The notes beneath the pieces are model-generated. The model saw nothing but the letters and a program-made list of their open reading frames with translations, did no database searches and was not told where the DNA came from. This document shows, piece after piece, positions 1 through 59,641 of a DNA stretch of 64,000 bases. The translations under genes were made by a program, and so were the position numbers. Source of the DNA: Anaerolineales bacterium (GTDB lineage: Bacteria; Chloroflexota; Anaerolineae; Anaerolineales; E44-bin32); contig DAOUEQ010000090.1 in assembly GCA_034430395.1 (NCBI GenBank), forward strand, positions 4,781-68,780, in the 5' to 3' direction. Within the stretch, counting starts at the first letter, position 1. Each line of letters begins with the position of its first letter.

Positions 1-1
1 T

Positions 2-1066
2 TGCCAAATGCAGCCCAAGGCCCGGACCGGGCACCACACCATCATCTCTGACAGGCTCTGATTGCCGCCCCGATCCGAACTTCTCGAAAATCATCGCTTG
101 TGCGCTTGGGTCTATGCCAACACCTGTGTCGGCAATCGTAAGCTCGATAAAGCCCGGAAGCATTCTTCCATTCACTAAGATCGAGCCCCCTTCTGGCGTA
201 AACTTCACGGCATTGTCAAGCACAATGATAATTGCCTGCAGAAGCCGTTCGGGATCAACGAATATTGTTTTTTCCGCTGAAGGGAATACGTTTACGTCCA
301 ACTTCTGTGAACGCTCAACAGCAATAATTCCAATCTCTGCTTCTGCCTTTTCAAGAAGTTTTTTAATCTGCACAGGTTGATAATGAAGCAATAACATCTT
401 TGTATCAACCATAGAGATATCAACCAATTCGTCTATTATGTGTCTCAATTTCTGAATACCAGACTCCACGCCAGACACTAATGGTCCGCTCTCCAAGTCT
501 CCGCCCATCAGGAGTTCTTTGAGCATTTCTGTATAACCCTCGATAAGTGTTAGCGGAGTCCTCAGTTCTTGAGCTGCGACGGTCACGAAATTCGACCGAG
601 TATCTTCGAGCAGCGAAAAAGCCTCTTGGATCTCATTCTGACTAGTTGTGAGCTTCTCAATAATCGCCGCGAATTCCCGATAAGCGGCGTATTCAATAAT
701 TTGACAAAATTGGGACTCAAGATTGTTTTGATACAGGAGCGCGATCTCAGCATCTAAATTCTTCTGGATCAAGGCAAACGCTGTATTCCGAAGGGCATGC
801 AGCGCGGAGACGATGCCTCGCTCTTGGTACGCGCTTAATGCTTGCTCAACCGAATTAAATTCTATCGGTGCATCAAAGAATCCATCGATACGTTTTTCTA
901 GAACACTAAATTCACCAGTAAGTATGGCATCAAGGATGGCATCGAGGAGGTTTTCAAGTTCCTTAATTGAAATCGCCGGGTGCTTGCTATCAATCGCGAG
1001 CATCCTTCCAGATTCATCCACCCAGTCCTGTCGGTGCTTAAGGAAAAATTCAACGGTATTAATCAT
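2..1066 (-). CDS. Sensor histidine kinase-like protein, runs off the window edge; phospho-acceptor His replaced by Gln
   Basis: Not in the ORF track; translated by hand from ATG at 1066. H-box reads VAAQELRTPLTLIEGY, N-box LDNAVKFTPEGG, G1 IADTGVGI, F-box IFEKF, G2 GPGLGL. Open to position 2. Confidence 0.85.
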   Translation of the reverse strand, partial: MINTVEFFLKHRQDWVDESGRMLAIDSKHPAISIKELENLLDAILDAILTGEFSVLEKRIDGFFDAPIEFNSVEQALSAYQERGIVSALHALRNTAFALIQKNLDAEIALLYQNNLESQFCQIIEYAAYREFAAIIEKLTTSQNEIQEAFSLLEDTRSNFVTVAAQELRTPLTLIEGYTEMLKELLMGGDLESGPLVSGVESGIQKLRHIIDELVDISMVDTKMLLLHYQPVQIKKLLEKAEAEIGIIAVERSQKLDVNVFPSAEKTIFVDPERLLQAIIIVLDNAVKFTPEGGSILVNGRMLPGFIELTIADTGVGIDPSAQAMIFEKFGSGRQSEPVRDDGVVPGPGLGLHLA

Positions 1067-1160
1067 TGGGTATTCATCATTCGAAATTATGCACTCCAAA
1101 TCTCCGCAAAACCAATTAAGTTTACTCAGATTTATTAGTATGGATACATCTACCGCATAC

Positions 1161-2018
1161 TCAGTGTTGGTTCTCCAGCCAATACTCTAACGTTTGCCCG
1201 ACCTGCTCCAGGCTATCTGCCGATACCTTATCAACCGTGTCACTGATCGTGTGCCAGTAAGGGTACTCGAAATCTATGATATCAACAGCGGGGACACCGA
1301 TTCGAAGAAAGGGCAAATGATCATCGATTATTGAATATTTTGGAGCGTCTACAAATGCTTGGTGACCTAACTGATTCGCTGTATTCCAGATCTCTTGCAC
1401 AAGGTTGGGATCAGAATATCTCTCGATAAATAGCTGGAGATCCCGATCCCCGACCATGTCGACAATCACTGCCGCTTCTAAGTCTTGGGTGAGATTATCA
1501 GCGAAGAAAGATGACCCAACGATCCATTCCCACCCGCCAATATTTCCGCTGTCTTCGGCATCAAAAAACACAAGCCAAACCGGATGTTTTAACTGACGGA
1601 CATCTAATACGTGGGCCAATTCTATCAGAATCGCGACTCCCGATGCGCCATCGTTTGCACCCGGGACTGGCGCCTCTTGACTCGTGGGATCCCGATCCGC
1701 GCAAGGTCTGGTATCGTAATGCGCTCCAAGCAGAATTGGCTTACTGCTGTTATCACCTTCCGATTTCGCAACAATATTCATCAGCGGAGTTCCAAGATAC
1801 TCGAATTGCTGGATTTCGACCTCCCATCGCTCTGATTCCAGTTGTTCGATGATCCAGCCTGCCGTTCTCCTGCTTGCTTTACTTCCAGGAATACGGGGTC
1901 CAAACGCTACTTGATTTTCTACAGATATCAGTGCCCGCTGACCTTCAAATTGGGTATCTTTAGCAGATGGAGAGCACGAAGCGAGCGCAAACAACAAAAC
2001 CACGCTTAAACTGCGCAT
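1161..2018 (-). CDS. M28-family peptidase / glutaminyl-cyclase-like lipoprotein
   Basis: Motifs GAHYDTR, GANDGASGV, FFDAED, DMVG, DDH, WHT. Lipobox LASC follows the ATG at 2018; the track start 2102 overlaps trmFO. Confidence 0.85.
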   Translation of the reverse strand: MRSLSVVLLFALASCSPSAKDTQFEGQRALISVENQVAFGPRIPGSKASRRTAGWIIEQLESERWEVEIQQFEYLGTPLMNIVAKSEGDNSSKPILLGAHYDTRPCADRDPTSQEAPVPGANDGASGVAILIELAHVLDVRQLKHPVWLVFFDAEDSGNIGGWEWIVGSSFFADNLTQDLEAAVIVDMVGDRDLQLFIERYSDPNLVQEIWNTANQLGHQAFVDAPKYSIIDDHLPFLRIGVPAVDIIDFEYPYWHTISDTVDKVSADSLEQVGQTLEYWLENQH

Positions 2019-2073
2019 AGCCTTTGTAATTATCAATGAGCAATGTAAAGTATCGTTGTTGGAACACATATGG

Positions 2074-3435
2074 CTATGCGCAATTTTCCTGTATATTTTC
2101 AAGATATTCTGCTAATACTGACGCTGACCGTTCCGCATAAGCGCTTGCGCGTTCGCGTCGATTCCGTTTCCGGCCATCATCCAGCGGCACCATCAAACCG
2201 AAGTTCGCTTTCATCGGCTGAAATAGTTTTTGATCCGCATGCGCTATGTAATGAGCTAAGGATCCAAGCATGGTCTCTCTAGGAATTACCAAAAGCTCAT
2301 GACGCTTAATTAATCGAGAGAGATTTATACCTGCCAATAACCCCGTTGCGATATTCCCTAAATAACCTTCCACACCAGTAAGTTGGCCGGCAAAGAAAAG
2401 ATCGCTCCGTCCTCGATGCTGCAAGTTCGATCCTAGCTGCGTCGGCGAATTCAAAAACGTGTTCCGGTGCATTTGACCATAACGTTGAAAACGCGCATTT
2501 TCCAAACCAGGAATCATCCGAAAGACATCCCGTTGCTCTTCGTATTTTAAGTTAGTTTGGAAACCGACCATGTTGTAGAGGCTCCCCGCTAAATTGTCTT
2601 GTCGGAGTTGAAGAACTGCGTACGGCCGCTTCCCGCTCCTAGGATCTATCAACCCTACAGGACGCATAGGTCCAAAAGCCAGACTATCCCTGCCTCTCTC
2701 GGCAATAATTTCAACCGGTAAACATCCTTCAAAGTAATGATACGCACCAGCGCGTACCCCATCCTGGATTTCTTTTTCAAAGCTCCTGAGAGGGATCCTT
2801 TCCGCCCGGAGCAAGCTGTCAATGAATGCTTCATATTCCTCTTTGTTCAATGGGCAGTTGATGTAATCCCCCTCCGCGCGTTCTCCTCTCTCATATCGCG
2901 AAGCGCGGAAAGCGACCTGCATGTTGATGCTTTCAACGTCGATAATTGGCGCAAGGGCATCGAAGAAATAGAGATGATCCTGATCAGATAAACCGCCAAT
3001 CGCCTGCGCCAGTGAATCTGAAGTCAAAGGACCGGAGGCGATGATTACAAACCCCTCAGGGATGGTCTTTACTTCGCTGCGCACAATCTGGATCTGGGGA
3101 TGCTTTTCAATTTGCTCTGTTACATCTCGTGCAAAACGCTCACGATCTACCGCTAAGGCGCCCCCTGCAGGAACTGCGTTCTGCTCTGCGCAGATCAATA
3201 CCATTGAGCCCAAAGTTCTCAGCTCGGCCATGAGAACACCAGAGGCGCGATCTGGCAGTTTGGATCCGAGCGAATTGGAGCATACCAACTCTGCAAGCGA
3301 TCCTGTCTGGTGCGCTCCAGTCGAGATATCAGGCCGCATCTCATAAAGCCGAACCCTGATACCGCGCTTCGCCAGCTGCCAAGCCGCTTCGCTGCCAGCT
3401 AACCCTCCTCCTACCACCACAGCATCTGTATTCAT
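2074..3435 (-). CDS. trmFO: Folate-dependent tRNA (uracil-54) methyltransferase TrmFO
   Basis: GGGLAGSEAAWQLA FAD-binding start, AELVCSNSLGS, YFEGCLPVE, FGPMRPVGL, YGQMHRNTF, AGQLTGVEGY. Confidence 0.95.
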   Translation of the reverse strand: MNTDAVVVGGGLAGSEAAWQLAKRGIRVRLYEMRPDISTGAHQTGSLAELVCSNSLGSKLPDRASGVLMAELRTLGSMVLICAEQNAVPAGGALAVDRERFARDVTEQIEKHPQIQIVRSEVKTIPEGFVIIASGPLTSDSLAQAIGGLSDQDHLYFFDALAPIIDVESINMQVAFRASRYERGERAEGDYINCPLNKEEYEAFIDSLLRAERIPLRSFEKEIQDGVRAGAYHYFEGCLPVEIIAERGRDSLAFGPMRPVGLIDPRSGKRPYAVLQLRQDNLAGSLYNMVGFQTNLKYEEQRDVFRMIPGLENARFQRYGQMHRNTFLNSPTQLGSNLQHRGRSDLFFAGQLTGVEGYLGNIATGLLAGINLSRLIKRHELLVIPRETMLGSLAHYIAHADQKLFQPMKANFGLMVPLDDGRKRNRRERASAYAERSASVLAEYLENIQENCA

Positions 3436-3459
3436 CTTGCGATTTTATCATGCCAACGA

Positions 3460-3475
3460 TGGCATAGTTCTTGCA
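3460..3475 (+). promoter_or_regulatory. sigma54 -24/-12 promoter upstream of rpoN
   Basis: TGGCAT-AGTTC-TTGCA matches consensus TGGCAC-N5-TTGC with exact GG-N10-GC spacing; intergenic, 52 nt before the rpoN ATG. Confidence 0.8.
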
Positions 3476-3527
3476 ACATAATTGCCAGCAATGTCCAGTC
3501 GATGTATACTCACCCGAGAGGCGCACT

Positions 3528-4943
3528 ATGTTCCGTCAGATCCAAGACCAATCTCTTAGACCACTCACGACAGCTCACCTTGCTCAAACGATGAGCCTTC
3601 TTGTTTTATCCAATCAGGAGCTGCACGATCGAGTGATCACAGAACTTGCATCGAATCCTGCGTTGGAGCTTCTTGACGAGCGCATCTGCCCGGGATGCCA
3701 TAAGCCCCTAAGCAATGCCGGACCCTGCCCCGTATGCAGCCGGCAGGCTGAAGGCGAAGAACCAATTGTATTTCTCTCCCCTCGGGATTCCTACCGACCA
3801 TCCAGAAAAAGAACACTTGATGATCAACCGCTGGAGCAAGAACCCGCAGCCCCAGAGGATCTCTCAATTTTCGTCATGCGGCAACTTGCCGCGGAACTTA
3901 AAGAGGAAGATCGGCACATTGCAGTTTACGTCCTTGACAGCCTTGATGAAGATGGCTTCCTGACCAGCCCCCCGCCCTACATCGCACAAGCCACTCGTTC
4001 CAATCTACCTCAGGTTATGAGGGTCATCGACTTGATACGTAAAGCGGACCCCGTCGGTTTGGCAACTAATGGTCCTCGAGAAACGCTTCTCGTTCAACTC
4101 GATCAGTTAGGTGATGGCGGAGAACCGCGCTGCGAATTGGCACGCCGATTACTGAGGGAATCCTTTGCGGAACTCGGTCGTAAAGAATTCGACAAGATCG
4201 CTCACAACTTCGAAGTCAGCCCTGCTGCAGTAAGAGAAGCCGCCACATTCATTCACGACAACCTAAACCCTTACCCCGCGCGAGCGTACTGGGGATCCGG
4301 ACGACAGCCGCAATCTGGCGACTCGAATGTTTACCACACCCCTGACGTCATGATCTCACGCAACCCCTCTGATGAATCTGGGCCACTGATGGTTGAAATA
4401 TTCTCGTCGATTTCGGGCTGGCTTCGGGTGAACCCTCTTTTCCGGCAAGCCATGAGGGAAGCGGATGAAGAGCAGAGCGATGAGTGGTCTGAGCATATGG
4501 AAAAGGCGAATCTCTTTGTGAAATGCATTCAGCAGCGCAATAACACAATGCAACGCCTGATGGGCTTGCTAGTATCACAGCAGAGTAGTTTTATTTTAGA
4601 AGGCGCTCGCCACCTCATACCCATGACGCGAGCCCAAATTGCAGAAGAGATCGGCGTCCACGAATCCACGATCTCAAGAGCAGTAGCGAATAAATCAGTC
4701 GCAATGCCCAATGGCAGAATAATTCCTCTTGCTAAATTCTTTGACCGCAGTCTCTCGGTGCGTGATCGTATCATAGAGATCGTCGAAAATGAAACCAAAC
4801 CACTTACAGACGATGAGATCGCCTCGCTTTTACACGAGGAAGGGATTAAGATAGCACGTAGGACTGTCGCGAAATACCGTGCGGTTGAGAATATTCTACC
4901 AGCTCGGTTGCGGGGTGCAAGAAAACTATCGCAGGCAGCCTAA
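3528..4943 (+). CDS. rpoN: RNA polymerase sigma-54 factor
   Basis: Region I LAQTMSLLVLSNQEL..ELASNPALE, HTH HESTISRAVANK, RpoN box ARRTVAKYR. ATG 3528 has a GAGAGG RBS; the track start 3471 lies inside the promoter. Confidence 0.95.
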   Translation: MFRQIQDQSLRPLTTAHLAQTMSLLVLSNQELHDRVITELASNPALELLDERICPGCHKPLSNAGPCPVCSRQAEGEEPIVFLSPRDSYRPSRKRTLDDQPLEQEPAAPEDLSIFVMRQLAAELKEEDRHIAVYVLDSLDEDGFLTSPPPYIAQATRSNLPQVMRVIDLIRKADPVGLATNGPRETLLVQLDQLGDGGEPRCELARRLLRESFAELGRKEFDKIAHNFEVSPAAVREAATFIHDNLNPYPARAYWGSGRQPQSGDSNVYHTPDVMISRNPSDESGPLMVEIFSSISGWLRVNPLFRQAMREADEEQSDEWSEHMEKANLFVKCIQQRNNTMQRLMGLLVSQQSSFILEGARHLIPMTRAQIAEEIGVHESTISRAVANKSVAMPNGRIIPLAKFFDRSLSVRDRIIEIVENETKPLTDDEIASLLHEEGIKIARRTVAKYRAVENILPARLRGARKLSQAA

Positions 4944-4953
4944 GGTGTAATCT

Positions 4954-6930
4954 TTGGCAAAGGATACTTCACCCACCAATCCGATCTCACGTTTATTTAA
5001 GGCTGACCCCTACCGCGAGCTTTTCCTCTCCCTCGCTGATACTCTAGACAACTCCGTCCTGGTATTATCCGGGGCGGAATCGCGTCTACTCACGTGCAAC
5101 CATGAATTCCTGCTTCTCTCCGGTTACGCCCGAAAGGATCTCGACGACCTAAACCCATCCGCCCTTTTTCCCGGCGAAGAGGGTCACGTTATGCTCAAGA
5201 AGATCCTTGACACATGGGAGAACCCAGACTGCACACTACAAGATGTTCCACTGCAGACACGCACAGGGGAAGTCGTCCTCATTGATCTTGAAGCACACCC
5301 GATCGCTCCTCCCCGAACAGCTGTCCTTCTTCTGATAAAACCCGCGAGTGCTCGCTCACAAATAGAGCAGCGTAAACTTGCTGAAGAGACTCTCTTACGC
5401 AGCTTGGAGAACATTACAAACTTGATGCTGATGGGAGGCACCTCCGCGGTGCCAACAGCACTCGAGCTCTGTCTTGAACCACTCTTCGCGTCATACACCG
5501 CAATATATAGGCTTTCGGCAAACTCGCCTGATTACTTTATCGAAGGTACGCTGCCCCCCGAATTCCCAGAAACGATCCCTGCCGACGCAATCGGCAATTT
5601 ACAGGTATTTTCCTCTTGGAGCCTGGGCCAACGCCCTGAGGGCGAATTACAGCGTGCCGCGAGAACCGCAGAACTCACCCACTTGAAGACTGCACTGATT
5701 GGTGATGATTCCGCTTGGATCGGCATTTTCATCGTCGGCTGGAAAGAGGAGATCGCGCTAAGTCCCGACATCGATCCGCTGATCCGCATCATCGCCAACC
5801 TCCTCCACACTGCCATCTACCTGAGCCAGCTTCGAGCCACCCTCACCGAAGGTGATACCTCCATGAACGAGCTTGAGGCGGAGATCACAAGCCAATTCGA
5901 GGCCATTTCCGATGTTCTGATAACTGTGGACTCTTCGCTCACTATAACAAGAGCGAATTCGGCGATAAACCGCCTGCTCGGTTATCACCCACCCGAAGTA
6001 ATAGGTCTTGCGATCCAGGATGTCCTTGTAGGTCCCGAGGATGTGACAACCACGATCCTTGACGCGCTGGGACACAAGCGCACGGCAGAACGCTCAAGAC
6101 TCATACTCCACCACCGTGATGGCACGCGCCTGCCAGTCCATTTACGGGTTGCTCCTCTGGCTGGAGCTGCAGACGGTCAATTTCTCATCGCCCTAGGTGA
6201 TCAATCCGAACAGCAAGCAATTGAAGATCAAACAGAAATCCTGGCCCAGAGAGCCTTGCTCGGCGAAGTCACCGCGATTTTCGCTCACGAAGTGAGGAAT
6301 CCCATCAACAACATATCCACCGGGGTCCAGCTTGTAGCCTCGCGCCTCGGTGAAAATCACCCACAATTCGAGGCGCTGGGCCGCATCCGGGCGGAGTGTG
6401 TTCGCCTCGATCAACTCATGAGCGACGTGCTCTTCTTTGCCCGCCCACTTCAACTGAAGATGGACCCTCTAGATCTCGCTGAGCTCCTTCAGAGAGTGAT
6501 TACTAGATGGGCGCCTCGCTTTAATCAAACCGGCACTCACTGCCATACTTCATACGATCCTGATACACCTCTCGCATCGGTGGATCCGAGGACACTTGAG
6601 CGAGTCATCGTAAACCTAGTCAGTAATGCTCTTGAAGCCATGACTGAAGGCGGCACACTCTCAATTAGTCTTGCACCAATAGGTCCTGCCCAAGATTGCA
6701 TGATCGAGTTGAAGGTCGCGGATACCGGCCCAGGCATCCCCCCTGATAAGATCCACCGGATATTTGATCCCTTTTTCACTACGAAAAAGGACGGGACAGG
6801 TCTCGGGTTAGCGATTAGCCGACGCATAATAACAGCACATAAAGGGACAATTCAGGTCGAGAGCTTTCCTGATGCAGGTACTGTGTTTACAATTCACCTC
6901 CCATCTGCGGACCTTAGTTCCAAGGAGTGA
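4954..6930 (+). CDS. Cytoplasmic PAS-domain sensor histidine kinase (NtrB-like)
   Basis: Two PAS-like segments; H-box FAHEVRNPINNI, N-box NLVSNALEAM, DTGPGI, FDPFFTTKKDGTGLGL; no obvious TM helix. Confidence 0.9.
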   Translation: MAKDTSPTNPISRLFKADPYRELFLSLADTLDNSVLVLSGAESRLLTCNHEFLLLSGYARKDLDDLNPSALFPGEEGHVMLKKILDTWENPDCTLQDVPLQTRTGEVVLIDLEAHPIAPPRTAVLLLIKPASARSQIEQRKLAEETLLRSLENITNLMLMGGTSAVPTALELCLEPLFASYTAIYRLSANSPDYFIEGTLPPEFPETIPADAIGNLQVFSSWSLGQRPEGELQRAARTAELTHLKTALIGDDSAWIGIFIVGWKEEIALSPDIDPLIRIIANLLHTAIYLSQLRATLTEGDTSMNELEAEITSQFEAISDVLITVDSSLTITRANSAINRLLGYHPPEVIGLAIQDVLVGPEDVTTTILDALGHKRTAERSRLILHHRDGTRLPVHLRVAPLAGAADGQFLIALGDQSEQQAIEDQTEILAQRALLGEVTAIFAHEVRNPINNISTGVQLVASRLGENHPQFEALGRIRAECVRLDQLMSDVLFFARPLQLKMDPLDLAELLQRVITRWAPRFNQTGTHCHTSYDPDTPLASVDPRTLERVIVNLVSNALEAMTEGGTLSISLAPIGPAQDCMIELKVADTGPGIPPDKIHRIFDPFFTTKKDGTGLGLAISRRIITAHKGTIQVESFPDAGTVFTIHLPSADLSSKE

Positions 6931-6933
6931 TGA

Positions 6934-8109
6934 ATGACCGCAACGGTATTGATCGTTGACGACGAAGAGACCGCCCGCAACTTCATCAGCGAAGCGTTGA
7001 CGGATGCTGGCTTTGAAGCAATCGAAGCGGGGACTCTGGCGGAAGCAAATAAAGCGATCGACAAGGGTGTAGGGGATATCATCCTGCTCGACGTTATGCT
7101 CCCTGATGGATCCGGTTTATCTTTGCTTGACCGCCTCGCCCTTGAAAATCCCCGACCACCAGTGATCTTGATCACTGCTTTTGGAGAGATTGATACAGCG
7201 GTCGATGCGATGAAGAAAGGTGCTCTAGATTTCCTACAAAAGCCCCTTGATCTAGATCGCTTGCTTCAAGCTATAGAGCGATCATCAGAGGTTGTGGGAC
7301 TGCGTCGGGAGCTTGATCTCCTGCGTCGGACTTCAATTTTGGAAACGGAGATGGTCATTGGTGAGACACAGATCATGAAGCAGATCATGCACGAAGCCGA
7401 ACGCGCGGCCCAAGCATCAGTCTCTGTCATGATCACAGGTGAAACCGGGACCGGCAAGGAAGTCCTCGCTCGGTCGATACACAGCTTCGGGCCACGTGCA
7501 GATACGCCTTTTATCCCGATTAACTGTGCTGCGCTGCCGGATACGATGATCGAATCGGAGCTTTTTGGACATGAAGCAGGAGCCTTCACCGGCGCGCAAA
7601 AAAAGAAGCCGGGATTGATCGAGATTGCCGACGGCGGCATCCTCTTCCTGGACGAAATCTCCTCAACTAAGCAGGAAATGCAAGCCAAGCTGCTGCGAGT
7701 CTTGGATGAGCAAAAATTCAGACGAGTTGGCGGAGTAAATGAAATTGGCGTTGACGTTCAAATCATCGCCGCTTCGAATCGGAACCTCCCGGTCATGATC
7801 GAGGAGGGAACCTTCAGAGAGGACCTCTACTATCGGCTGAAGGTAGTCGATCTTCACCTCCCGCCTCTTCGTGAACGAATTGTTGATCTCCCAGCGCTTA
7901 CAGGCAACTTCATCCGCCAAATCAACCTCCGTGTTGGCGGCATCGTAGAGGGAATCACACCGCGCGCACTTGACGCACTTAAAGCTCACTCATGGCCCGG
8001 TAACATCCGTGAACTCCGTCACGTGGTCGAGAGAGCAATTCTATTTTGCGACGAGGAAAACATCGATCTCGCTCATCTCCCCCCTGACATACAAGATCTC
8101 GCTTCCTGA
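6934..8109 (+). CDS. sigma54-dependent response regulator (receiver + AAA+ bEBP), no C-terminal HTH
   Basis: Receiver VLIVDDE / LLDVMLPD / KP; Walker A GETGTGKE, GAFTGA, Walker B LFLDEI, REDLYYRL, WPGNIREL. Ends 391 aa right after the AAA+ domain. Confidence 0.92.
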   Translation: MTATVLIVDDEETARNFISEALTDAGFEAIEAGTLAEANKAIDKGVGDIILLDVMLPDGSGLSLLDRLALENPRPPVILITAFGEIDTAVDAMKKGALDFLQKPLDLDRLLQAIERSSEVVGLRRELDLLRRTSILETEMVIGETQIMKQIMHEAERAAQASVSVMITGETGTGKEVLARSIHSFGPRADTPFIPINCAALPDTMIESELFGHEAGAFTGAQKKKPGLIEIADGGILFLDEISSTKQEMQAKLLRVLDEQKFRRVGGVNEIGVDVQIIAASNRNLPVMIEEGTFREDLYYRLKVVDLHLPPLRERIVDLPALTGNFIRQINLRVGGIVEGITPRALDALKAHSWPGNIRELRHVVERAILFCDEENIDLAHLPPDIQDLAS

Positions 8110-8115
8110 ACTCTT

Positions 8116-8131
8116 TGGCACGCTACTTGCA
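8116..8131 (+). promoter_or_regulatory. sigma54 -24/-12 promoter
   Basis: TGGCAC-GCTAC-TTGCA, perfect consensus, in the 57-nt gap before the GGAGG RBS and ATG 8167. Confidence 0.88.
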
Positions 8132-8166
8132 ACATTCGCCTTCAGACGCATAACCTGGAGGCGAAA

Positions 8167-8499
8167 ATGATTCCCCTTACATTTGGCGATGTTCAAATCC
8201 TCATAGCTGCAACCATCTTCATCTTGGGCTCCTTATTGGTACTCATCGGGGCTTTGGTTTTAGTCAGCCGAGGCTATTCCCGAGAGGTGCGGGCCTTGGC
8301 GGCTCATACCGCTAGGCTTGGCCAGAAAGGTATTGCCCAAGAGGTAACAGGACTTGTTAACAGTGCCACAGAGCTCGTCGCTTCTCTCAATAGTCTGGTT
8401 CGGACCGCAAGCGGGATAGGGATCATACTGATCTCAGTTGGATTAGGCTTGTTGTACGCAGGCTATTGGATCATTCAGCAAATCAGCTGGCCAATCTAA
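8167..8499 (+). CDS. Small two-TM membrane protein, unknown function
   Basis: Strong GGAGG RBS; two hydrophobic segments flanking an Ala/Leu-rich helical linker. Confidence 0.75.
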   Translation: MIPLTFGDVQILIAATIFILGSLLVLIGALVLVSRGYSREVRALAAHTARLGQKGIAQEVTGLVNSATELVASLNSLVRTASGIGIILISVGLGLLYAGYWIIQQISWPI

Positions 8500-8516
8500 C
8501 CGACTGGATGGGTACT

Positions 8517-11500
8517 ATGCTCAATGACGCGGAAATATTGCAGTATTTAAGCCGGGTCCTGAACGAAGACGATCTCTCCAGCGCAATTAGACGGATCCTG
8601 TATGTGCCAGAGGCGTGGAGCGAGGTTCACAAAAGCGAATTCCTCACCCTGGCTCTGGAGAAGATCGATCGCGCTGGTTGGTCCCCCGCCACTCTCGCTT
8701 CTCTAGCCCTCGGACAATCATCGTTATCTAAGGCGTTGGATTCTCTCTCCTCTGAGCAAGAGAGTCGCATCGCCCATTTACTGGAATTGGATGGTGCTGC
8801 GGAGAACAAGAACCTTGTGGATACCGCACTCCTCTCTGTCACACTTCTGAGAATCGAGACCGATGAAGGGCCAGGTGGGCTGACTGAAACGATACTAAGA
8901 AGCACAGATTTCTGGGCTTCGGCACTTTGCTGCGCGTGGCCATATCTCGAATTTGGGCAAGAAATAATCAATGCACTTATCCGAGAAGGAAGTCAAGCTG
9001 CCATAGCGCTTGTCATACAAATATTGCACGCGAACATGGATGTCAACCGTGCTGTTGAGATTCTTTCAAATCTTGACCATGAATCGACTCAGCGGGTATT
9101 GATCAGTTTAAACCTCAGGCACGAGGATGAGTTGTTCCTGGCTCTTTCAGAATCGATCCGTGATGACCTTCACCCTAATCCAGTAGATGGTCACCAAGAT
9201 CCGAGCGACCTTTCAGAACAGGCAATCATTCTTGCCGCATCAGGGAATTCCGCTGATGCGCAAAAACTCGTCTCTCAAGCCTGGGACCGAACCACATTGA
9301 TCTCAGCGGAGGTCGCCGATCGTTTGGCTGATATTGCCAAAATGGATAATGACCCGGTTCTTGAAGTGGAAGCGCGCAAGCAAGCGCTGCAATTAAAACT
9401 CTCGCCGCGACGGCGCGCCGAACTGGCGAAAGCTTACGTTCAAATAGATCGCCATCAAGATGCCCTCGATCTACTCCAAGAACCCGCGACGGCAGAGGAA
9501 TATATCGCCGCAGGACAAGCTCATCTACTTTCAAACGAGTCTGCGATTGCAGCGGATTGCTTTATTCAAGCCTATCAACACTCACTCAATGCACCTGCGC
9601 TAGAATCCACATGGATGGACTTGCTCTCCCGTGGACTTGAGGCTTCGGGTAAGTATCGCCAGGCGGTCCAGGTCCTCGAGATCCTTTCTGCACTAAAACC
9701 AACCGATGCAGAACTACGACATAATCTAGCCACGTTGCTCGAGAAGGCTGGTGATCCTGATACGGCAGCGGAGCAAGCGGCGTTCGCACTCACGCTGATG
9801 CCGAAATCGCTGCAATTACGCGAAATCTTAGCCCGTAACTTGCAGAAATCCGGCCGCCCAGAACAGGCTATCGCACATTGGCAAGCAATCACCCTGCATG
9901 AGAAACAAGCGCTTGCGAAGTTATGCGCCTGTGCGCTAGAAGCCGGGGATTACACTTTAGCGAAGCAAAGCGCGGAGGAACTCCGCTCAGAAAATCCTGA
10001 GTCAGTGGAAGCCCAAGTCCTTTTGGGAAAAGCTCTTTCTGCCTTGGGAGAGCATCAAGAGGCTGAAGCTCACTTAAAGAAAGTCACACAACTAACCCCT
10101 GCGGATGCCGATGCATGGATTGCTCTTTCGGAATGCCAGCTGTCGACAGGCGGTGAAAATGCTGCCGACAAGACATTAAATGCCGCTCTCGAAGCCTTAC
10201 CAGCGAGCGGAATCATTCATGTCGCGAAGGCAAACTCGCTCCGCAGCAAATCGATGCCAAACGAAGCACTCGAGCATATGCAGAAAGCCGTAGATCTTGA
10301 TCCCGAGAGCGCAGCTTGGCTTGTTGATTATGGGGATCTGCTCAGGGAGCTCGGTCGCATAGAAGAAGCAACGCCAATCCTGCAGTCTGCCCTAGATAAG
10401 CAGCCTGAAAACTGGAAGGCTCGCGAAGCATTAGCTCTCACCTTCGAGAGCCAGGGCGAAATGGCTTCGGCTGCAGAGCTTATCGACAACCTCCCCAGGA
10501 ATCTCGACCCAGATTCACTTTGGAACGCAGGTCGAATTCTCGTCCAGACGCCTTCCGAAAAAGAAGATTCCAAGCTTGTAATTGGTGTAAAGACCCTTGA
10601 AAAGGCCCGTGAGGTTGGATGTGACGACATAGCCATCGATTACTGGATCGCCCATGGCCTTCACCGCCAAGATCTTAACGAGGAAGCCATCAATTATTAC
10701 CAGACCTTCCTGAACAATTCTGAGGAGTCTCCCTGTGAGGCATATCTTCAAGGCGTGCTAGGTCTGGCGGATGCTGCCATCGCAATGGACGACGCACCTT
10801 TGGCAATTGAAACGATGGAGAAGCACCGCGGTCAGTACCCGACTTCACTCGAACTGCTCACCCTTCTGGCGAAAGCACATATGTCTAATAATGACTTCAG
10901 CGTAGCGAAGAATCTCGCTCGCCAGGCTTTCGAGCGAAACCCGATCGAGACTGAAGCACTCTCCATATTAAGCATAGCTGCAGAAGCAGATGGCTCGCTG
11001 GATGAAGCCATCGCCTCACGCAAACAACTCGCCAATCTCCAACCAGAGCAGCCAATGCCCTGGCTAGAACTCGCCCGGCTGACATGGCTCACCGGGAACA
11101 AGGACGCAAGCCGCAACCATTTGGCACGCGGCCTCTCCCTGGGCCGAAGGGATAAGCTAATCCTGCAAAAAGCTGCCACCCTATGCGGCGAGTTCAAATT
11201 CCACCCTTTGCAATTACGATTGCTCCAGAGCGCTTCATCCCTCGATGAGCATGACCCTGACATTCATCAGGAATTGGCACTTGCCGCTGAAAATATCGGT
11301 GATTTTGAACGGGCACAGCGGGCGTGGATGCATATCGCAGATCTTCTTCCAAACGACACTCACCCTCTTGACCGTGCCGCGGATGCACTCTGGAAACTGG
11401 ATAAGAGAACCGCCGCAATTGGCTTGTGGGAACAAGCTACGCAGATCGACTCGGAGAACGCACTGCACTTTACCGCGCTCGGACGAGCTTATATGCAGAT

Positions 11501-16328: not shown

Positions 16329-16344
16329 TGGCACGCTTCTTGCA
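16329..16344 (+). promoter_or_regulatory. sigma54 -24/-12 promoter
   Basis: TGGCAC-GCTTC-TTGCA, perfect consensus, intergenic, 30 nt before ATG 16375. Confidence 0.88.
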
Positions 16345-16374: not shown

Positions 16375-17670
16375 ATGTCTCAAGGATTTGATCGACTCGG
16401 ATTTCATTATTATCACGACCAGGACCATTACACCCAAGCGGATCTTGACCGCTGGCTGCCAATTTTCCAATCTATCCAAACGAAATGGCTCACACTGAGT
16501 GGATCTTGTTCACTAGCCATCCCCGAGTTCTTCCTGCGCAAACTGATCGAGGCGGATATCAAGCCGATCATTCACCTCGAGGCATCAATCGACCAACTCA
16601 ATGTTCGCTCGCTCAGACCACTTTTCGCTAATTACACGGATTGCGGCATCAAGCACATCGTTCTCCATGACCGCCCGAATATGCGTACGCAGTGGGATCC
16701 CTCGAGCTGGTCTCGTGGTGATCTGGTCGAGCGATTCATCGACCACCTGATCCCCTTACTTGAGTTTCAAACCGAATATGGTCTAAAGCCAATTTTCCCT
16801 CCTCTAGAACCCGGTGGCGATTATTGGGATACCGCATTTCTTCGAACAGCGCTTGGATCCCTCCAGCGCAGAGGGAAAGGTGAATTGCTAAAGGACCTCA
16901 CGTTAGGTCTCTACCAATGGAGCTATGGGAAACCGCTTGATTGGGGAGCTGGAGGCCCAGAAGTCTGGACCTGCGCACAACCATACAACACCCCCACTGA
17001 CAGCCAGGACCATCGGGGTTTTCGAATAACCGAATGGTATTCCGCAATCTGCCGCGAGGTTGTCGGAATTGAACTGCCAATGTTAATACTCGCTGGCGGA
17101 ATTTCCCCTCAGACGCAGGTTGGAAGAACGGGAATAAAACCAGATCTTGATGCAATCACTGAAATTCTTGAGCACGCCAGGTGTGATGACCACCCCGGTC
17201 TGGTACTCAACCTCGCTCTAGACCCACATACGGTTTCCGAAGGGCTGCGAGATAGCTGGGAAGCCATCATTGAAAAACCATCGCCCTCAAGGCGAATAAA
17301 GGCTAAGGTAAAGAAACTGTTTGCTGGTGAAGAAACGAGCACAACAAACGCTACTCATAAGAAAATCATCTCACATTACGTGCTTCTCCCGATGTCAAAT
17401 CACCGCAACTTAACCCAGGATTGGGTAAATGTAGGACCCTTTGCGTTAGCCGTGAAACCAGTTGTTGGTTTCTCTGTGGGAGAAGCCCAATTCGCCGAAC
17501 GAGTGACGATCATCGGCCACGAGACGGATATTCCTGCTGCTATCGAAGACCAACTGCGCAGTGCCGGTTGTGATGTCAACCGCCTCCGAATGGCAGATGC
17601 GTCAGAGCTTCTTGTTATGGCGGCCGAACTAGCTTCAAAGAACCTCACTTCTGGAGTTGTCAATGCCTGA
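16375..17670 (+). CDS. Degenerate glycoside-hydrolase-like (clan GH-A TIM barrel) protein with small C-terminal alpha/beta domain
   Basis: IVLHDRPN aligns by eye to the V-x-x-NEPN motif and LPMLILAGG to LP-x-x-xTE-x-G; family assignment by pattern only. Confidence 0.5.
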   Translation: MSQGFDRLGFHYYHDQDHYTQADLDRWLPIFQSIQTKWLTLSGSCSLAIPEFFLRKLIEADIKPIIHLEASIDQLNVRSLRPLFANYTDCGIKHIVLHDRPNMRTQWDPSSWSRGDLVERFIDHLIPLLEFQTEYGLKPIFPPLEPGGDYWDTAFLRTALGSLQRRGKGELLKDLTLGLYQWSYGKPLDWGAGGPEVWTCAQPYNTPTDSQDHRGFRITEWYSAICREVVGIELPMLILAGGISPQTQVGRTGIKPDLDAITEILEHARCDDHPGLVLNLALDPHTVSEGLRDSWEAIIEKPSPSRRIKAKVKKLFAGEETSTTNATHKKIISHYVLLPMSNHRNLTQDWVNVGPFALAVKPVVGFSVGEAQFAERVTIIGHETDIPAAIEDQLRSAGCDVNRLRMADASELLVMAAELASKNLTSGVVNA

Positions 17671-18790
17671 TGCAAATTCCCTCGAGTACTTACAGCATCT
17701 CTCCCAACCCGAACATCCGCGGCAATTAGGAGAAGCCAAAGTCAAAGTCCTAGGCCTGGGTGGAGGAGGGTCGAACGCCGTCAATCGTATGATCGAGTTA
17801 GGGGTGATGGGCGTCGAGTTCATCGCCGCCAACACTGACCAGCAAGCACTAGCTTCCAGTCTTGCACCTACCCGCATTCAACTTGGACCACGGATCACTC
17901 GCGGTCTGGGAGCAGGTGGTGACCCAAAGATCGGCGCATCAGCAGCGATGGAAAGCAGCCGTGAGATCGCCGCGGTTCTTGCAGGAGCCGACATGGTCTT
18001 CATCACCGCAGGCATGGGTGGTGGTACAGGAACTGGAGCAGCTCCTGTCGCGGCCGAGATCGCGCGGGAGATCGGCGCAGTTGTTATCGCAGTTGTTACC
18101 ATGCCTTTTAGTTTCGAGATGAGCAAGCGCTCCCAGAATGCCCTGGAAGGTGTCCGTCTAATACAACCGCATACGAATACGCTGATTACCGTGCCAAATG
18201 ATCGCTTGTTGCAAGTCGTTCCCCGGGATCTAAGCCTGGAGGTCGCCTTTCGTATTGCGGATGATGTTCTGCGCCAGGGAGTCCAGGGGATCGCCGAATT
18301 GATCACCCGTCCCGGCTTGATCAACGTAGATTTCGCACATGTGCGCGAGATTATGACCCGCGGAGGTGGCGCCTATATGGCCATCGGGTTAGGGGAAGGT
18401 GAAGAGAAAGCGCCCGCGGCGATTAAGCAAGCGCTGCACCACCCACTGTTAGAGATCGACGGCCTCGATAGCGCCTCGGGTGTTCTCGTGCACTTCACAG
18501 GAGGCGAGGACCTCACGCTCTACGAAGTTGGAGAAGCCGTAAACGAGCTGCGCAATGTGACCACACCTGATATCGACATCATTCTCGGTGCCACGACGGA
18601 TCCAGCGATGACGGGCCGGGCGCAAGTCATTTTAATCTTCACCGGTGTGGGAGGCTGCCCAGTTGCTGCCACACAGGGGATTGATGAAATTGCAATCGCA
18701 TCTTCATCTCAGGTCAAAAGTAATCAGATAGAGGATCTCGACCTACCAACTTTTCTAAGAAGGCGCGCCGCTGTCGGCTCAAGGAGCTAA
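17663..18790 (+). CDS. ftsZ: FtsZ-family tubulin-like GTPase (paralogue outside a dcw cluster)
   Basis: GLGGGGSNAVNRM, ANTD, AGMGGGTGTG, T7 loop GLINVDFAHV, C-terminal peptide DLDLPTFLRR. ATG 17663 with GGAG RBS. Confidence 0.93.
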   Translation: MPDANSLEYLQHLSQPEHPRQLGEAKVKVLGLGGGGSNAVNRMIELGVMGVEFIAANTDQQALASSLAPTRIQLGPRITRGLGAGGDPKIGASAAMESSREIAAVLAGADMVFITAGMGGGTGTGAAPVAAEIAREIGAVVIAVVTMPFSFEMSKRSQNALEGVRLIQPHTNTLITVPNDRLLQVVPRDLSLEVAFRIADDVLRQGVQGIAELITRPGLINVDFAHVREIMTRGGGAYMAIGLGEGEEKAPAAIKQALHHPLLEIDGLDSASGVLVHFTGGEDLTLYEVGEAVNELRNVTTPDIDIILGATTDPAMTGRAQVILIFTGVGGCPVAATQGIDEIAIASSSQVKSNQIEDLDLPTFLRRRAAVGSRS

Positions 18791-18796
18791 CAAACT

Positions 18797-19027
18797 GTGG
18801 ATCAGGCAACGATAAAGAAACTCACCCGCGCCGTCGGGAAAAAGTTCCCCGAGATGGACCGAGTTAGACCTTCGGTAAGCAAGCAAGCCAGCAGGGAGGG
18901 GAATGTACAATTTTTGTTGACCTACAAGGGGAAGGCTGAACTGCCAGGGGGTCGTAAGATCAGCCGCATTGTTCGCGTCGTCGCCGATGAGCGGGGACGG
19001 ATCATAAAGATGAGTACATCAAAATAG
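18797..19027 (+). CDS. 76-aa basic protein homologous to the C-terminal domain of the upstream protease
   Basis: AAGGAG RBS, GTG start; pairwise similarity to the last ~95 aa of 13652..16309 (see findings). Confidence 0.8.
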   Translation: MDQATIKKLTRAVGKKFPEMDRVRPSVSKQASREGNVQFLLTYKGKAELPGGRKISRIVRVVADERGRIIKMSTSK

Positions 19028-19029
19028 CC

Positions 19030-19233
19030 ATGGACGAATATCTGATCAACCTCAACTCGTATGCAAAACTCGCTTTTTGGAAAGTTGCCGCTAGCCTTAC
19101 CGGAGCCGCGGTACGCAACCAACGACTCTTTAACCGCGTCTTATGGGTCGCGCCCATCGTTCTCGCCGCGGTCCTTGCCTATATGTTTGGCAGGTTGTTT
19201 GGCACAATTCTCCTATTGGGATTAGCAGCATAA
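19030..19233 (+). CDS. 67-aa small membrane protein
   Basis: 2 nt after the previous stop; hydrophobic C-terminal half; followed by a terminator. Confidence 0.6.
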   Translation: MDEYLINLNSYAKLAFWKVAASLTGAAVRNQRLFNRVLWVAPIVLAAVLAYMFGRLFGTILLLGLAA

Positions 19234-19319: not shown

Positions 19320-20072
19320 ATGCGAAGTCGATTGCCAGTTGTACTCTTTGTTCTTATGATGTTGGTCTGCTTCGCAGCAGGCGCTATTAGCGTGCTCCTT
19401 CAAGGTGAAGAACAAGATAAGAGCCCTCAAAAAACACCTTTCACATCGATTGAAATCGCACCCACCACACCTATCCGCAGTGAAGCCGTCTCCATTCTCG
19501 TGCTGGGAGTAGATGAAATCAAACAGGATAAGCCGGACCTTCTTTCCATCTGGTTCATAAGTTTCCACCCCCCTGATAAAAAGATACGTCTCCTGGGGTT
19601 GCCTTCGGACCTCCTTCTTCCGAACACCGAAATCCCTCTTAGCGAGGCTTTCTCCCTTTGGGAAGCTCCGGATTACGGGGCCGATTTCATCACCGCGATG
19701 GACCACTTCTCCCCTCATCCCATCTTCGGCATTGCCGTTCTAGATGAGGAGGGTTTCAGTGCTTTAATCGATTACCTGGGCGGCTTCTCCCTCGACGATC
19801 AGACATACGATGGCGCTTCAGCGATTGGCACGCTTCGCTTGCTTGAAGACCAACCACTTGTCGCTCTAAAGCTGCAAGCCCAAATCCTGCGCGCACTGAG
19901 CGTGAAAGTTCCGGACCTTGGTGAAACACCCGAGCTCACACAACTCACGCTCCTTCTACCGGAGAACGCGTACACATCCCCTTCACCAGCACAATTGGCG
20001 ACACTCGCCAGCCCCCTGCTCCCGTTGCAGGCGGATCTCATTGAGATCACTATTTTGGAGACCACACCTTGA
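19320..20072 (+). CDS. Degenerate LytR-CpsA-Psr (LCP) family protein
   Basis: N-terminal TM, then SILVLGVD, IRLLGLPSD, GFSALIDYLGG; canonical Arg residues absent. Confidence 0.65.
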   Translation: MRSRLPVVLFVLMMLVCFAAGAISVLLQGEEQDKSPQKTPFTSIEIAPTTPIRSEAVSILVLGVDEIKQDKPDLLSIWFISFHPPDKKIRLLGLPSDLLLPNTEIPLSEAFSLWEAPDYGADFITAMDHFSPHPIFGIAVLDEEGFSALIDYLGGFSLDDQTYDGASAIGTLRLLEDQPLVALKLQAQILRALSVKVPDLGETPELTQLTLLLPENAYTSPSPAQLATLASPLLPLQADLIEITILETTP

Positions 20073-50678: not shown

Positions 50679-50713
50679 GTAACTTCATAGGAACATTAAA
50701 GAGATATCAATAC

Positions 50714-51604
50714 ATGCCGATTAAAACTTTTTTTTCCCGCATCTTTAGACCACCTCCCTCTCAGACCGGAGCTGGCACTCAATTGACAGGTGGAGAGTCT
50801 GCAGGTAGTCGCGCCTATAATTCTGCTCCCAACGATCGAATCATCATCGGCGCAAGTCAGTCACCTGGCCTCGAGCGAAGTCATAATGAGGATGCACAAC
50901 TGGTTATCAAAGGGGATTCTGCTGGGGCTGAGCCGCTTCCTGAGTTCGGCTTGTTCATGGTCGCTGACGGGATGGGAGGACATCGAGCCGGAGAGGTCGC
51001 CAGCAACGTTTCCATCCGCTCTGTTGCTCGAAAATTGATGGAAGAGACGGTCCTTCATCTGCTCGATTTGGATAACTCCACCGAGATGCTTCCGCTGCAG
51101 GACCTCCTGCATGCTGCTTTAGAAGAAGCGAACTCAGCGGTTGTGGAGCAAGTGCCCGGCGGCGGAACGACAATGACCGCGGCATTACTGCTAGGGTCAC
51201 AATTGACGATCGGGCATGTTGGTGACAGCCGCGCCTACTCCATCAATAATGGTCAAATTGAAATCCTGACCAGGGACCATTCGCTGGTTGAACGACTCAA
51301 GGAACTCGGTCAACTCACTGCTGAGGAAGCCGAATCGCATCCCCAACGTAATGTTCTGTACCGTGCGATCGGTCAGGGGGCTAACCTTGAAATTGATGTT
51401 TTCACCACCGCCGCACCAAAGGGCGGGCATCTGCTTATCTGCTCGGATGGTCTTTGGGGCGTTGTACCCGATCTCCAAATAAAGCATGTCGTGAACGATG
51501 CACCTCATCCACAAATCGCCTGCGAGCAACTCGTCCAAGCCGCGAACCTCGCCGGTGGGCCTGATAACATCTCCGTTGTTATCGTTCGATTTCCATCTGA
51601 TTAG
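50714..51604 (+). CDS. PP2C-family Ser/Thr phosphatase
   Basis: RSHNED, ADGMGGH, GHVGDSRAY, LTRDHS, CSDGL, GGPDNIS. Confidence 0.93.
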   Translation: MPIKTFFSRIFRPPPSQTGAGTQLTGGESAGSRAYNSAPNDRIIIGASQSPGLERSHNEDAQLVIKGDSAGAEPLPEFGLFMVADGMGGHRAGEVASNVSIRSVARKLMEETVLHLLDLDNSTEMLPLQDLLHAALEEANSAVVEQVPGGGTTMTAALLLGSQLTIGHVGDSRAYSINNGQIEILTRDHSLVERLKELGQLTAEEAESHPQRNVLYRAIGQGANLEIDVFTTAAPKGGHLLICSDGLWGVVPDLQIKHVVNDAPHPQIACEQLVQAANLAGGPDNISVVIVRFPSD

Positions 51605-51613
51605 AGGAACTAG

Positions 51614-59458: not shown

Positions 59459-59641
59459 AGATTTCCTCGGCACATTATAGCGCCGTTTTATATTCTCTCC
59501 TTCATTGCCGCGAATACTTGAACGGATTACAATCGAATGGTCATGCCCCTTTCTCATTTGGGTTGAAGGGTGAATGTTGGATGTGCCCTAATAAATGCCC
59601 ATCCAGCTCAGGCAGGCGGGGCATCTGGAGAAGTTAACAAC

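Follow-up and report, generated by a model that had tools for sequence, protein, structure and literature searches.

A clade-wide FtsZ variant of Anaerolineales with histidine or asparagine at the position of the catalytic aspartate and a predicted sigma-54 switch

Can a bacterium maintain, and put to use, an FtsZ that lacks the aspartate (Asp) of the T7 loop? GTP hydrolysis, for which this residue serves as the trigger, is considered to drive the treadmilling of FtsZ and the dynamics of the Z-ring. The question is raised by a 64,000-nucleotide stretch of the genome of an Anaerolineales bacterium assigned to the family E44-bin32 in GTDB (GenBank assembly GCA_034430395.1, contig DAOUEQ010000090.1, positions 4,781–68,780; hereafter, the window), which encodes an FtsZ with histidine (His) at this position. 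The initial annotation, made from the sequence alone, described the gene as an ftsZ paralog and suggested that its product is either a static scaffold or an inducible inhibitor of the housekeeping Z-ring. Here we compare this His-type FtsZ, its operon and its predicted regulatory circuit with those of its relatives, and weigh the possible functions of such a protein.

The T7 loop of the His-type FtsZ and its clade

The protein matches the FtsZ profiles well above their cutoffs, with 377.8 bits for TIGR00065 of NCBIfam (cutoff 295.2), 155.1 bits for the Pfam family Tubulin (PF00091; E = 3.4e-45, cutoff 33) and 84.3 bits for FtsZ_C (PF12327; E = 7.7e-24, cutoff 27). Its residues were mapped through a gap-free HMMER alignment to the Bacillus subtilis FtsZ (PDB 2vam). 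The nucleotide-contact loops T1–T6 are conserved in the alignment with the FtsZs in PDB, again without gaps, and in T7, N221 and D223 (N207 and D209 of Escherichia coli) are kept, such that the only replaced residue is the equivalent of E. coli D212. Codon 226 is an in-frame CAT at 18338–18340, and the encoded His226 is aligned to D213 in the B. subtilis loop GLINLDFADV; instead of the N-x-D-x-x-D pattern of the T7 synergy loop, the protein has NVDFAH, with His226 in place of the second, catalytic Asp. The reading of this codon by the initial annotation is thereby confirmed, as are the retention of the GTP-binding motifs and of the C-terminal peptide and the shortness of the linker, which spans about 27 residues from the end of the core (approximately residue 330) to the peptide. 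All 120 closest relatives have this peptide, with small differences in sequence; it is predicted to bind membrane anchors of the FtsA, SepF or ZipA type.

Overall, compared with canonical FtsZ (TIGR00065; B. subtilis, PDB 2vam/2vxy), the His-type protein has the same Tubulin plus FtsZ_C architecture, about 52–57% identity in the core, the GGGTGTG signature, the T1–T6 contacts, the Asn and the first Asp of T7, and the C-terminal peptide. It differs from canonical FtsZ by the His at D213 (B. subtilis)/D212 (E. coli), FEM in the T5 loop, Asn at B. subtilis D159 and His at B. subtilis N263, and further by the short linker, faster evolution, a predicted sigma-54 promoter and a location outside the cluster of division and cell-wall genes (dcw), apart from ftsA. 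The immediate neighbors are two uncharacterized genes, up431 and d76. In agreement with the initial annotation, which noted no adjacent ftsA, ftsQ or mur genes, we detected no ftsA, ftsQ, mur, mraZ or second ftsZ among the scanned open reading frames (ORFs) of the window (about a dozen ORFs of 165–345 aa were left unscanned).

The replacement is a property of an entire clade. Among the roughly 240 close proteins and 135 or so species genomes sampled overall, we encountered mostly His or Asn at the equivalent of position 226, Gln or Ser in rare cases, and Asp not once; the initial annotation had pointed to orthologs with Asp as evidence that would count against it, and none were found. Among the 120 closest database proteins (70–100% identity, annotated as Anaerolineales FtsZ), there are 111 with His, 6 with Asn, 2 with Gln and none with Asp, and His is present in 119 of the best 120 relatives of a distant member of the clade. 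The nearest representatives of 50%-identity clusters contain His, Asn or Ser, and Asp is first encountered farther out. A degenerate-DNA scan for NVDFAHV over 185,579 species genomes yielded genuine FtsZ loci from Anaerolineales, at least about 95 of them, and when the variant with Asn was searched for exhaustively, about 40 more loci with the same gene context were added; a genome scan with the FtsZ protein itself as the query was saturated by generic FtsZ motifs. The 126 genomic loci with this context among the matches listed comprise 92 with His, 34 with Asn and none with Asp, the codons being CAT (49), CAC (43), AAC (22) and AAT (12), but never GAY, although GAY is one mutation away from the His and Asn codons and the tree of these 126 genes requires at least nine state changes at this site. 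This absence suggests that Asp is not simply dispensable but selected against. Because the His/Asn state is clade-wide in both proteins and loci, it is not a private mutation, and neither chance nor a sequencing error can account for His226. The corresponding locus of the metagenome-assembled genome (MAG) M42_98 (DAOUDJ01) is 91% identical to that in the window, an identity from which the family E44-bin32 was assigned. With dN/dS of 0.05–0.08 relative to close relatives, the paralog is under strong purifying selection.

The T7 substitution does not stand alone. Several sites that are nearly invariant in FtsZ co-vary with it, namely, the T5 loop (FEG to FEM), B. subtilis D159 (to His in most relatives and to Asn in the window protein), N263 in the interdomain cleft (to His), the Ser of AISSPLL (to His) and an Arg that becomes Lys. 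The His clade shows 50–57% identity to everything outside it, compared with 67% between the cores of the canonical FtsZ of EnvOPS12 (Anaerolineales) and a Bacillota FtsZ (L235 versus L016), and evolves much faster than canonical FtsZ. The EnvOPS12 protein itself is unusually slow-evolving, being closer to the Bacillota FtsZ than to that of Thermomicrobium, another member of Chloroflexota (62%).

The same position is lost in E. coli D212N/G/A and B. subtilis D213A; these, however, are laboratory single mutants of the housekeeping protein, whereas the His-type FtsZ is a natural, selected, clade-wide and co-adapted separate paralog. An extra full-length FtsZ that is found across an order, never has the Asp and is under purifying selection amounts to a natural experiment on the uses of a slow or non-hydrolyzing FtsZ.

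One FtsZ or two per genome

To count the FtsZs per genome, we relied on the published FtsZ-family alignments and trees in the supplements of Santana-Molina et al. 2023 (PMC9871819). In this dataset, Leptolinea tardivitalis has WP_062420545.1, with GLINLDFADV, FEG and NVTGG, along with WP_081420050.1, with GVINVDFAHV. Pairs of an Asp-type and a His-type protein are likewise present in Brevefilum fermentans (WP_087862634.1 and WP_087862293.1), in NAK19 of the family UBA4823 (PWH19609.1 and PWH14679.1) and in a member of the order UBA7937 (HAL61603.1 and HAL60776.1); given that FEG, D and N are still canonical in HAL60776.1, the latter is an early form. Levilinea saccharolytica is represented by the His-type WP_082142735.1 in the alignment and by another entry within the canonical clade, and Ornatilinea, Flexilinea, UBA6170, UBA6107 and UBA4781 each have one entry per clade, as judged from tree position alone. 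The L. tardivitalis locus to which WP_081420050.1 maps, L090, shares the gene context of the window, and the protein is 46% identical to its canonical paralog. The canonical copies are linked to ftsA, in the order ddl-ftsQ-ftsA-ftsZ.

Judging from these sequences, canonical and His-type FtsZ coexist in every relative that can be checked at the whole-genome level, and the window ORF is, by the same comparisons, a member of a conserved FtsZ paralog family of the class Anaerolineae. The family spans the order Anaerolineales (Anaerolineaceae, E44-bin32 and UBA4823), with the early-branching form in the order UBA7937. The initial annotation had called the gene a paralog rather than the only ftsZ of its genome. 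In the relatives, which carry another ftsZ, this holds true; for the genome represented by the window, phylogenetic bracketing strongly suggests it.

We also considered the opposite view, of a housekeeping FtsZ that is the only one in its genome and has undergone the substitution throughout the lineage; it drew on the TIGR00065 equivalog score, a partition between families and the lack of any assembly common to the two sets. TIGR00065 has served as a concatenated phylogenomic marker in 880 Chloroflexota genomes. The apparent partition in GTDB was between the His-type Anaerolineaceae, E44-bin32 and UBA4823, on the one hand, and the ftsA-linked, Asp-type EnvOPS12, on the other hand, and the comparison of assemblies involved about 100 genomes with His (among the matches listed), about 40 with Asn and 79 with an ftsA-linked Asp-type gene. 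The lack of shared assemblies is a sampling artifact because the His set came from among the matches listed and the FtsA scan required exact 8-mers. The finding of both copies in single genomes (PMC9871819) led us to reject this view.

The paralog is easily overlooked in surveys, given that the widely used presence/absence table of Pende et al. (PMC8178401, Supplementary Data 2) lists one FtsZ for B. fermentans, SMX54823.1, beside the FtsA SMX54822.1, and omits WP_087862293.1. B. fermentans was also missing among the best 120 relatives of the His-type protein of “Brevefilum sp.”; its paralog is only about 72% identical to the query and might fall just below the top 120. The duplication is not discussed in the main text of PMC9871819, and we found no paper that discusses the paralog family, nor any discussion of the feature in the literature on T7-loop His, Anaerolineae FtsZ, Anaerolineaceae FtsA and the catalytic residues of verrucomicrobial FtsZ. 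In the same supplement, T78 sp003532515 (Anaerolineales) has a His-clade protein, HBO34110.1, and a very long-branch FtsZ, HBO33197.1, in which NLICLNLADLRSIM and DGTGTG replace the usual motifs and which may be a further degenerate copy.

Of the known bacterial FtsZ paralogs, none is known to have lost the T7 Asp, and the C-terminal peptide is absent from some. FtsZ1/FtsZ3 of Hyphomicrobiales, FtsZm of magnetotactic bacteria, and FtsZ1/FtsZ2 of plastids and archaea are, like the His-type protein, products of lineage-specific duplications that exist beside a housekeeping copy; the His-type FtsZ differs from the known paralogs in being full-length, with the peptide but without the Asp, and in having its own sigma-54/two-component cassette. 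At least five independent duplications of ftsZ, often with truncated paralogs, have been described in bacteria (bioRxiv 10.1101/2025.09.29.679267).

The operon and its predicted sigma-54 control

The sigma-54 promoter consensus, with GG at −24 and GC at −12, is TGGCAC-N5-TTGCW, and its perfect form TGGCAC-N5-TTGCA occurs exactly twice in the window, both times on the forward strand, in intergenic regions of the ftsZ cluster (P1 and P2 in Table 1). P2 starts 46 nt upstream of the ATG of up431, the gene that precedes ftsZ, and ends 30 nt before it. Sites with at most two mismatches and intact GG/GC cores lie 25–165 nt upstream of up431 in 87 of the 93 orthologous loci (29 perfect and 49 with one mismatch), compared with 2 of 93 for the within-gene control and 1 of 79 for the region upstream of canonical ftsA; upstream of canonical ftsZ, there were only weak two-mismatch matches. 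A scan for sigma-70 promoters and terminators gave nothing above shuffled sequences.

The genes expected for such a switch lie nearby. The rpoN gene, with a perfect RpoN box, is syntenic upstream of the module in other loci as well (L195, L185 and L355), and the PAS histidine kinase is syntenic in at least eight distant loci. The bacterial enhancer-binding protein (bEBP) contains the GAFTGA motif and the Walker A motif GETGTGKE but ends at residue 391, without the C-terminal helix-turn-helix (HTH) domain typical of NtrC; in other families and in the locus L012 discussed below, its orthologs (58–65% identity) are encoded directly upstream of up431 or of a TPR gene. The rpoN-kinase-bEBP trio adjoins up431-ftsZ in distant families, too. 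In its REC plus AAA+ architecture with GAFTGA and without a C-terminal HTH, this activator resembles FlgR of Helicobacter and CtcC of Chlamydia, from which it differs in that its presumed target is a cytoskeletal/division operon and that it is encoded, together with rpoN, directly upstream of the presumed promoter. Sequence match and genetic linkage together suggest that the paralog operon is transcribed in a sigma-54-dependent manner, which lends support to the “inducible” of the initial annotation; we found no described precedent for such predicted control of an ftsZ gene. The conserved promoter and the adjacent rpoN, kinase and activator genes offer a regulatory handle on the system. At the start of rpoN itself (3460–3487 in the window), there are overlapping sigma-54-like elements with one mismatch each, TGGCATAGTTCTTGCA on the forward strand and TGGCAATTATGTTGCA on the reverse strand, a pairing that hints at possible autoregulation.

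Table 1 Features of the ftsZ cluster in the window and related loci.
Feature	Position	Strand	Basis
rpoN (sigma-54)	3471..4943	+	Pfam Sigma54_AID, CBD, DBD; perfect RpoN box ARRTVAKYR
PAS sensor histidine kinase	4954..6930	+	Pfam PAS, HisKA, HATPase_c
Response-regulator bEBP without DNA-binding domain	6934..8109	+	Response_reg (3e-27), Sigma54_activat (9.1e-69), AAA_lid_14
Sigma-54 −24/−12 element P1 (predicted), TGGCACGCTACTTGCA	8116..8131	+	Perfect match; 7 nt past bEBP stop, upstream of TPR gene
Giant TPR-repeat protein, 1729 aa	8466..13655	+	Many TPR Pfam families
TPR plus Peptidase_C25-like protein, 885 aa	13652..16309	+	Pfam Peptidase_C25 (2.4e-10), TPR
Sigma-54 −24/−12 element P2 (predicted), TGGCACGCTTCTTGCA	16329..16344	+	Perfect match upstream of up431
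up431, uncharacterized partner, 431 aa	16375..17670	+	GH-like TIM barrel plus small alpha/beta domain (predicted)
FtsZ paralog (His-type), 375 aa	17663..18790	+	ORF, profile matches, alignment to PDB FtsZs
Tubulin/FtsZ signature GGGTGTG, residues 119–125	18017..18037	+	Sequence, alignment to PDB FtsZs
T7 loop GLINVDFAHV, residues 218–227	18314..18343	+	Sequence, alignment to PDB FtsZs
C-terminal conserved peptide DLDLPTFLRRR, residues 358–368	18734..18766	+	Aligns with B. subtilis tail DTLDIPTFLRNR
d76, conserved 76-aa protein	18797..19027	+	6 nt 3' of ftsZ
d67, small hydrophobic, probably membrane protein	19030..19233	+	ORF, sequence
d250, N-terminal hydrophobic segment plus domain without family match	19320..20072	+	ORF, sequence; no Pfam match
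Asn-type FtsZ loci of the candidate phyla radiation (CPR)	L279, L284, L287, L295, L298, L302, L303, L307, L316, L320, L322, L324, L339, L342, L343, L351, L352, L354, L356		

The paralog is the second gene of what appears, from gene order, to be a conserved operon, up431-ftsZ-d76, with small membrane proteins in addition. Practically every locus of the His or Asn type has this order; up431, whose end and the beginning of ftsZ share 8 nt in the window, precedes nearly every His/Asn-type ftsZ, and d76 is syntenic in most loci of all families. The up431 family comprises about 1400 “hypothetical” proteins, and the window protein has no match in Pfam or NCBIfam even at E = 10. Its AlphaFold2 (AF2) model (mean predicted local distance difference test score, pLDDT, 79.6) consists of a (beta/alpha) barrel and a small alpha/beta domain, with weak Foldseek matches to the glycoside hydrolase (GH) families GH5, GH39, GH72 and GH84 and to sugar epimerase barrels. 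We considered the possibility that up431, which stands in the position of ftsA, is a divergent FtsA and ruled it out: there is no match to PF14450 or PF02491 in Pfam at E = 10, and the model is a TIM barrel rather than an actin-like ATPase fold with SHS2. For d76, the single-sequence AF2 model (pLDDT 87.6) shows a helix and a four-stranded sheet; neither a Pfam match nor a significant fold match in PDB was obtained, and in the absence of any family or fold match, ZapA, SepF and other known FtsZ partners were ruled out. Both up431 and d76 are uncharacterized families that we encountered only beside His/Asn-type ftsZ, and the analysis brings them to light as partner families. Of the more variable genes, d67 is syntenic in the closer relatives only and d250 in many loci. 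Synteny of the 1729-aa TPR gene extends over a subset of loci, the closer ones, and L012. The 885-aa C25-like gene has a 4-nt overlap with it and is syntenic in about 35 loci as well as L012.

The locus L012 (positions 1–11053; Anaerolineae order B4-G1, MAG H33_443) encodes, in this order, the bEBP, the TPR and C25-like proteins, MraZ, an FtsZ with Asp and an M23 peptidase, with a sigma-54-like site at 1560 between the bEBP and TPR genes. In 94 of 100 neighbor-joining (NJ) bootstrap replicates, its fast-evolving FtsZ falls together with the non-Asp clade, and mraZ lies directly upstream of ftsZ. This arrangement could be read as showing that the His-type gene occupies the ancestral dcw locus, a reading that we gave up: because the bEBP gene and the sigma-54-like site are also present upstream, L012 is more likely a member of the module that has retained the Asp.

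Proposed mechanism, alternatives and further observations

We put the probability at roughly 0.55 that the paralog is switched on by sigma-54, hydrolyzes GTP slowly and acts as a scaffold or as a brake, either of the two. Under this reading, a signal would be sensed by the PAS kinase, which would phosphorylate the bEBP; the phosphorylated bEBP would open the sigma-54 promoter and so switch on the paralog along with its partners. The His-type subunit would then bring a T7 loop without the water-polarizing Asp to the inter-subunit active site, resulting in slow GTP hydrolysis and slow turnover, either in homopolymers or at mixed interfaces with the His-type subunit atop canonical FtsZ. Through the common C-terminal peptide, such filaments could use the same membrane anchors as housekeeping FtsZ. 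The outcome would be either an FtsZ scaffold that is long-lived and under regulation or a slowing of Z-ring dynamics, for specialized septation or envelope remodeling in multicellular filaments. Anaerolineales are abundant multicellular filamentous bacteria. In keeping with this reading, the E. coli FtsZ(D212N) is GTPase-defective yet polymerizes (PMC3573117).

More tentatively, and with the odds rather against it, we suggest that Anaerolineales possess a second, dedicated “Z-ring” system, in which a re-wired FtsZ with its own partners (the TIM-barrel protein, the small alpha+beta protein, membrane proteins and the giant TPR/caspase-fold proteins) and a private sigma-54/kinase/bEBP circuit would serve a long-lived septal or fragmentation structure or the arrest of division. 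If true, this would be a bacterial analog of the alpha/beta-tubulin split into hydrolyzing and non-hydrolyzing interfaces. Beta-tubulin has Lys where alpha-tubulin has the catalytic Glu254, and the N-site is non-hydrolyzing. The likeness is that the T7 acid is replaced, which would leave a non-hydrolyzing or slowly hydrolyzing longitudinal interface beside a competent paralog; unlike in beta-tubulin, the replacement here is His or Asn rather than Lys, the full FtsZ C-terminal peptide is present, and there is no sign of an obligate heterodimer.

Several points weigh against the slow, sigma-54-switched paralog that we favor. Each of the four residues observed (His, Asn, Gln or Ser) is polar and capable of orienting a water molecule, as the catalytic Gln of Ras and the His of EF-Tu do. 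The same His is present in ftsA-linked, dcw-type FtsZs of marine Verrucomicrobiales, and Asn in many FtsZs of CPR. The evidence on all members of the clade is at the level of sequence, the sigma-54 sites are consensus matches, and the NJ trees were built from distances by a simple method and contain long branches. Finally, a canonical FtsZ was not seen for the window's own genome within the 64 kb, and E44-bin32 is absent from the dataset of PMC9871819.

The strongest alternative, a serious one although clearly less probable than slow hydrolysis, is that the paralog is a GTPase-competent but differently tuned second division FtsZ in which His or Asn together with D223 positions the water, forming a dynamic ring for another septum or life-cycle stage, comparable to FtsZ1/FtsZ2 of archaea and plastids, rather than a static scaffold or an inhibitor. 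In its favor, the FtsZ of marine Verrucomicrobiales has His at the same T7 position (GELNVDFAHV), and CPR (Patescibacteria) FtsZs have Asn (G[LI][IV]N[LV]DFAN[IV]); these genes lie in murB-ddl-ftsQ-ftsA-ftsZ or ftsA-ftsZ contexts, and the co-varying sites have D, G and S. Given that these proteins are only 30–45% identical to the His-type FtsZ, the changes are independent and convergent. Because ftsA-linked FtsZs carry His or Asn, the substitution is compatible with probably functional division proteins, such that His need not mean a dead GTPase and hydrolysis may persist. The convergence also prompts one to ask whether the “catalytic Asp” is really as indispensable as model organisms would have it. 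A competent enzyme would further agree with the occurrence of only polar, hydrogen-bonding residues at the site in the clade and with the strong purifying selection that acts on the protein throughout, its GTP pocket included. Against it stand the GTPase defect of E. coli D212N (PMC3573117), the failure to regain Asp, one mutation away, in at least nine state changes, and the faster evolution of the clade (50–57% identity to outsiders versus 67% between EnvOPS12 and Bacillota).

Among the MAGs of marine Verrucomicrobiales, the gene at L172 (3969–5123; similarly in L107, L128 and L134) encodes an FtsZ with about 30% identity to the window protein and the loop GELNVDFAHV; it lies inside a murB-ddl-ftsQ-ftsA-ftsZ cluster and lacks the other signature changes of Anaerolineales. 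The long verrucomicrobial branches that fell inside the clade in early NJ trees were treated as an artifact and removed. The ftsA-linked Asn-type FtsZ was found in about 20 CPR genomes, from Paceibacterota, Saccharibacteria, Nealsonbacteria, Wildermuthbacteria and others (Table 1).

A role as a dedicated inducible inhibitor, in which His-type subunits would cap or poison canonical protofilaments, compete for FtsA by way of the common C-terminal peptide and arrest division under stress, with a SulA-like outcome achieved by a decoy subunit, seems to us quite unlikely. Mutants of the D212 class are reported to be dominant-negative in model bacteria, the C-terminal peptides of the two paralogs are nearly identical (DLDLPTFLRRR compared with DIDIPTFMRKR in the canonical FtsZ of L. 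tardivitalis), and expression appears to be signal-dependent through sigma-54. A mere inhibitor, however, would have no need of a conserved operon with TIM-barrel, membrane and giant TPR/C25-like proteins, the FEG to FEM change in T5, on the top face, may weaken co-polymerization with canonical FtsZ, and the paralogs are only 46% identical. Least probable, by a little, is that E44-bin32 lost the canonical ftsA-ftsZ and the His-type protein took over as the only FtsZ of this genome: its score above the TIGR00065 equivalog cutoff, the retained C-terminal peptide, the lack of a canonical copy among the scanned ORFs of the 64 kb and the lack of assemblies common to the His/Asn and ftsA-Asp sets are in its favor, but the last of these is the sampling artifact described above, both copies are present in all checkable relatives from Anaerolineaceae, UBA4823 and the order UBA7937, which bracket E44-bin32, and an activator-dependent sigma-54 promoter would be unusual for an essential housekeeping gene.

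The favored reading, a sigma-54-switched and slowly hydrolyzing paralog, is directly testable because both paralogs are carried by cultured strains, namely, Leptolinea tardivitalis, Levilinea saccharolytica, Ornatilinea apprima and Flexilinea flocculi.

The scanned rest of the window is ordinary chromosome, with plsX, fabF, sucCD, scpB, ftsH and Ser/Thr kinases. At 48795–53613, there is a signaling cluster for a PP2C phosphatase, a DnaJ-VWA protein, a protein with an FHA domain and a Ser/Thr kinase that carries a fused PQQ/beta-propeller domain; another Ser/Thr kinase is encoded at 59570–60679, and a 1150-aa protein with a PMT_2-type glycosyltransferase domain and NHL repeats at 35340–38792 on the reverse strand.

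Two further observations concern proteins with FtsZ-like motifs elsewhere. Nine Fibrobacter genomes contain an ORF with the T7-like motif GLVN[VI]DFANVVD (L281, 1714–2658 on the reverse strand, and L280, L299, L305, L306, L311, L325, L344 and L353). No Pfam match was obtained for the L281 ORF, and tblastn revealed no resemblance to FtsZ in any of the nine loci; this may be a very divergent protein of the tubulin superfamily or a coincidental conserved motif. Three cluster representatives, P0121 (840 aa), P0123 (826 aa) and P0125 (744 aa), contain two FtsZ stretches per polypeptide, with two complete GLVNVDFADV T7 loops in P0121, and may represent FtsZ fused in tandem or gene calls that were merged.

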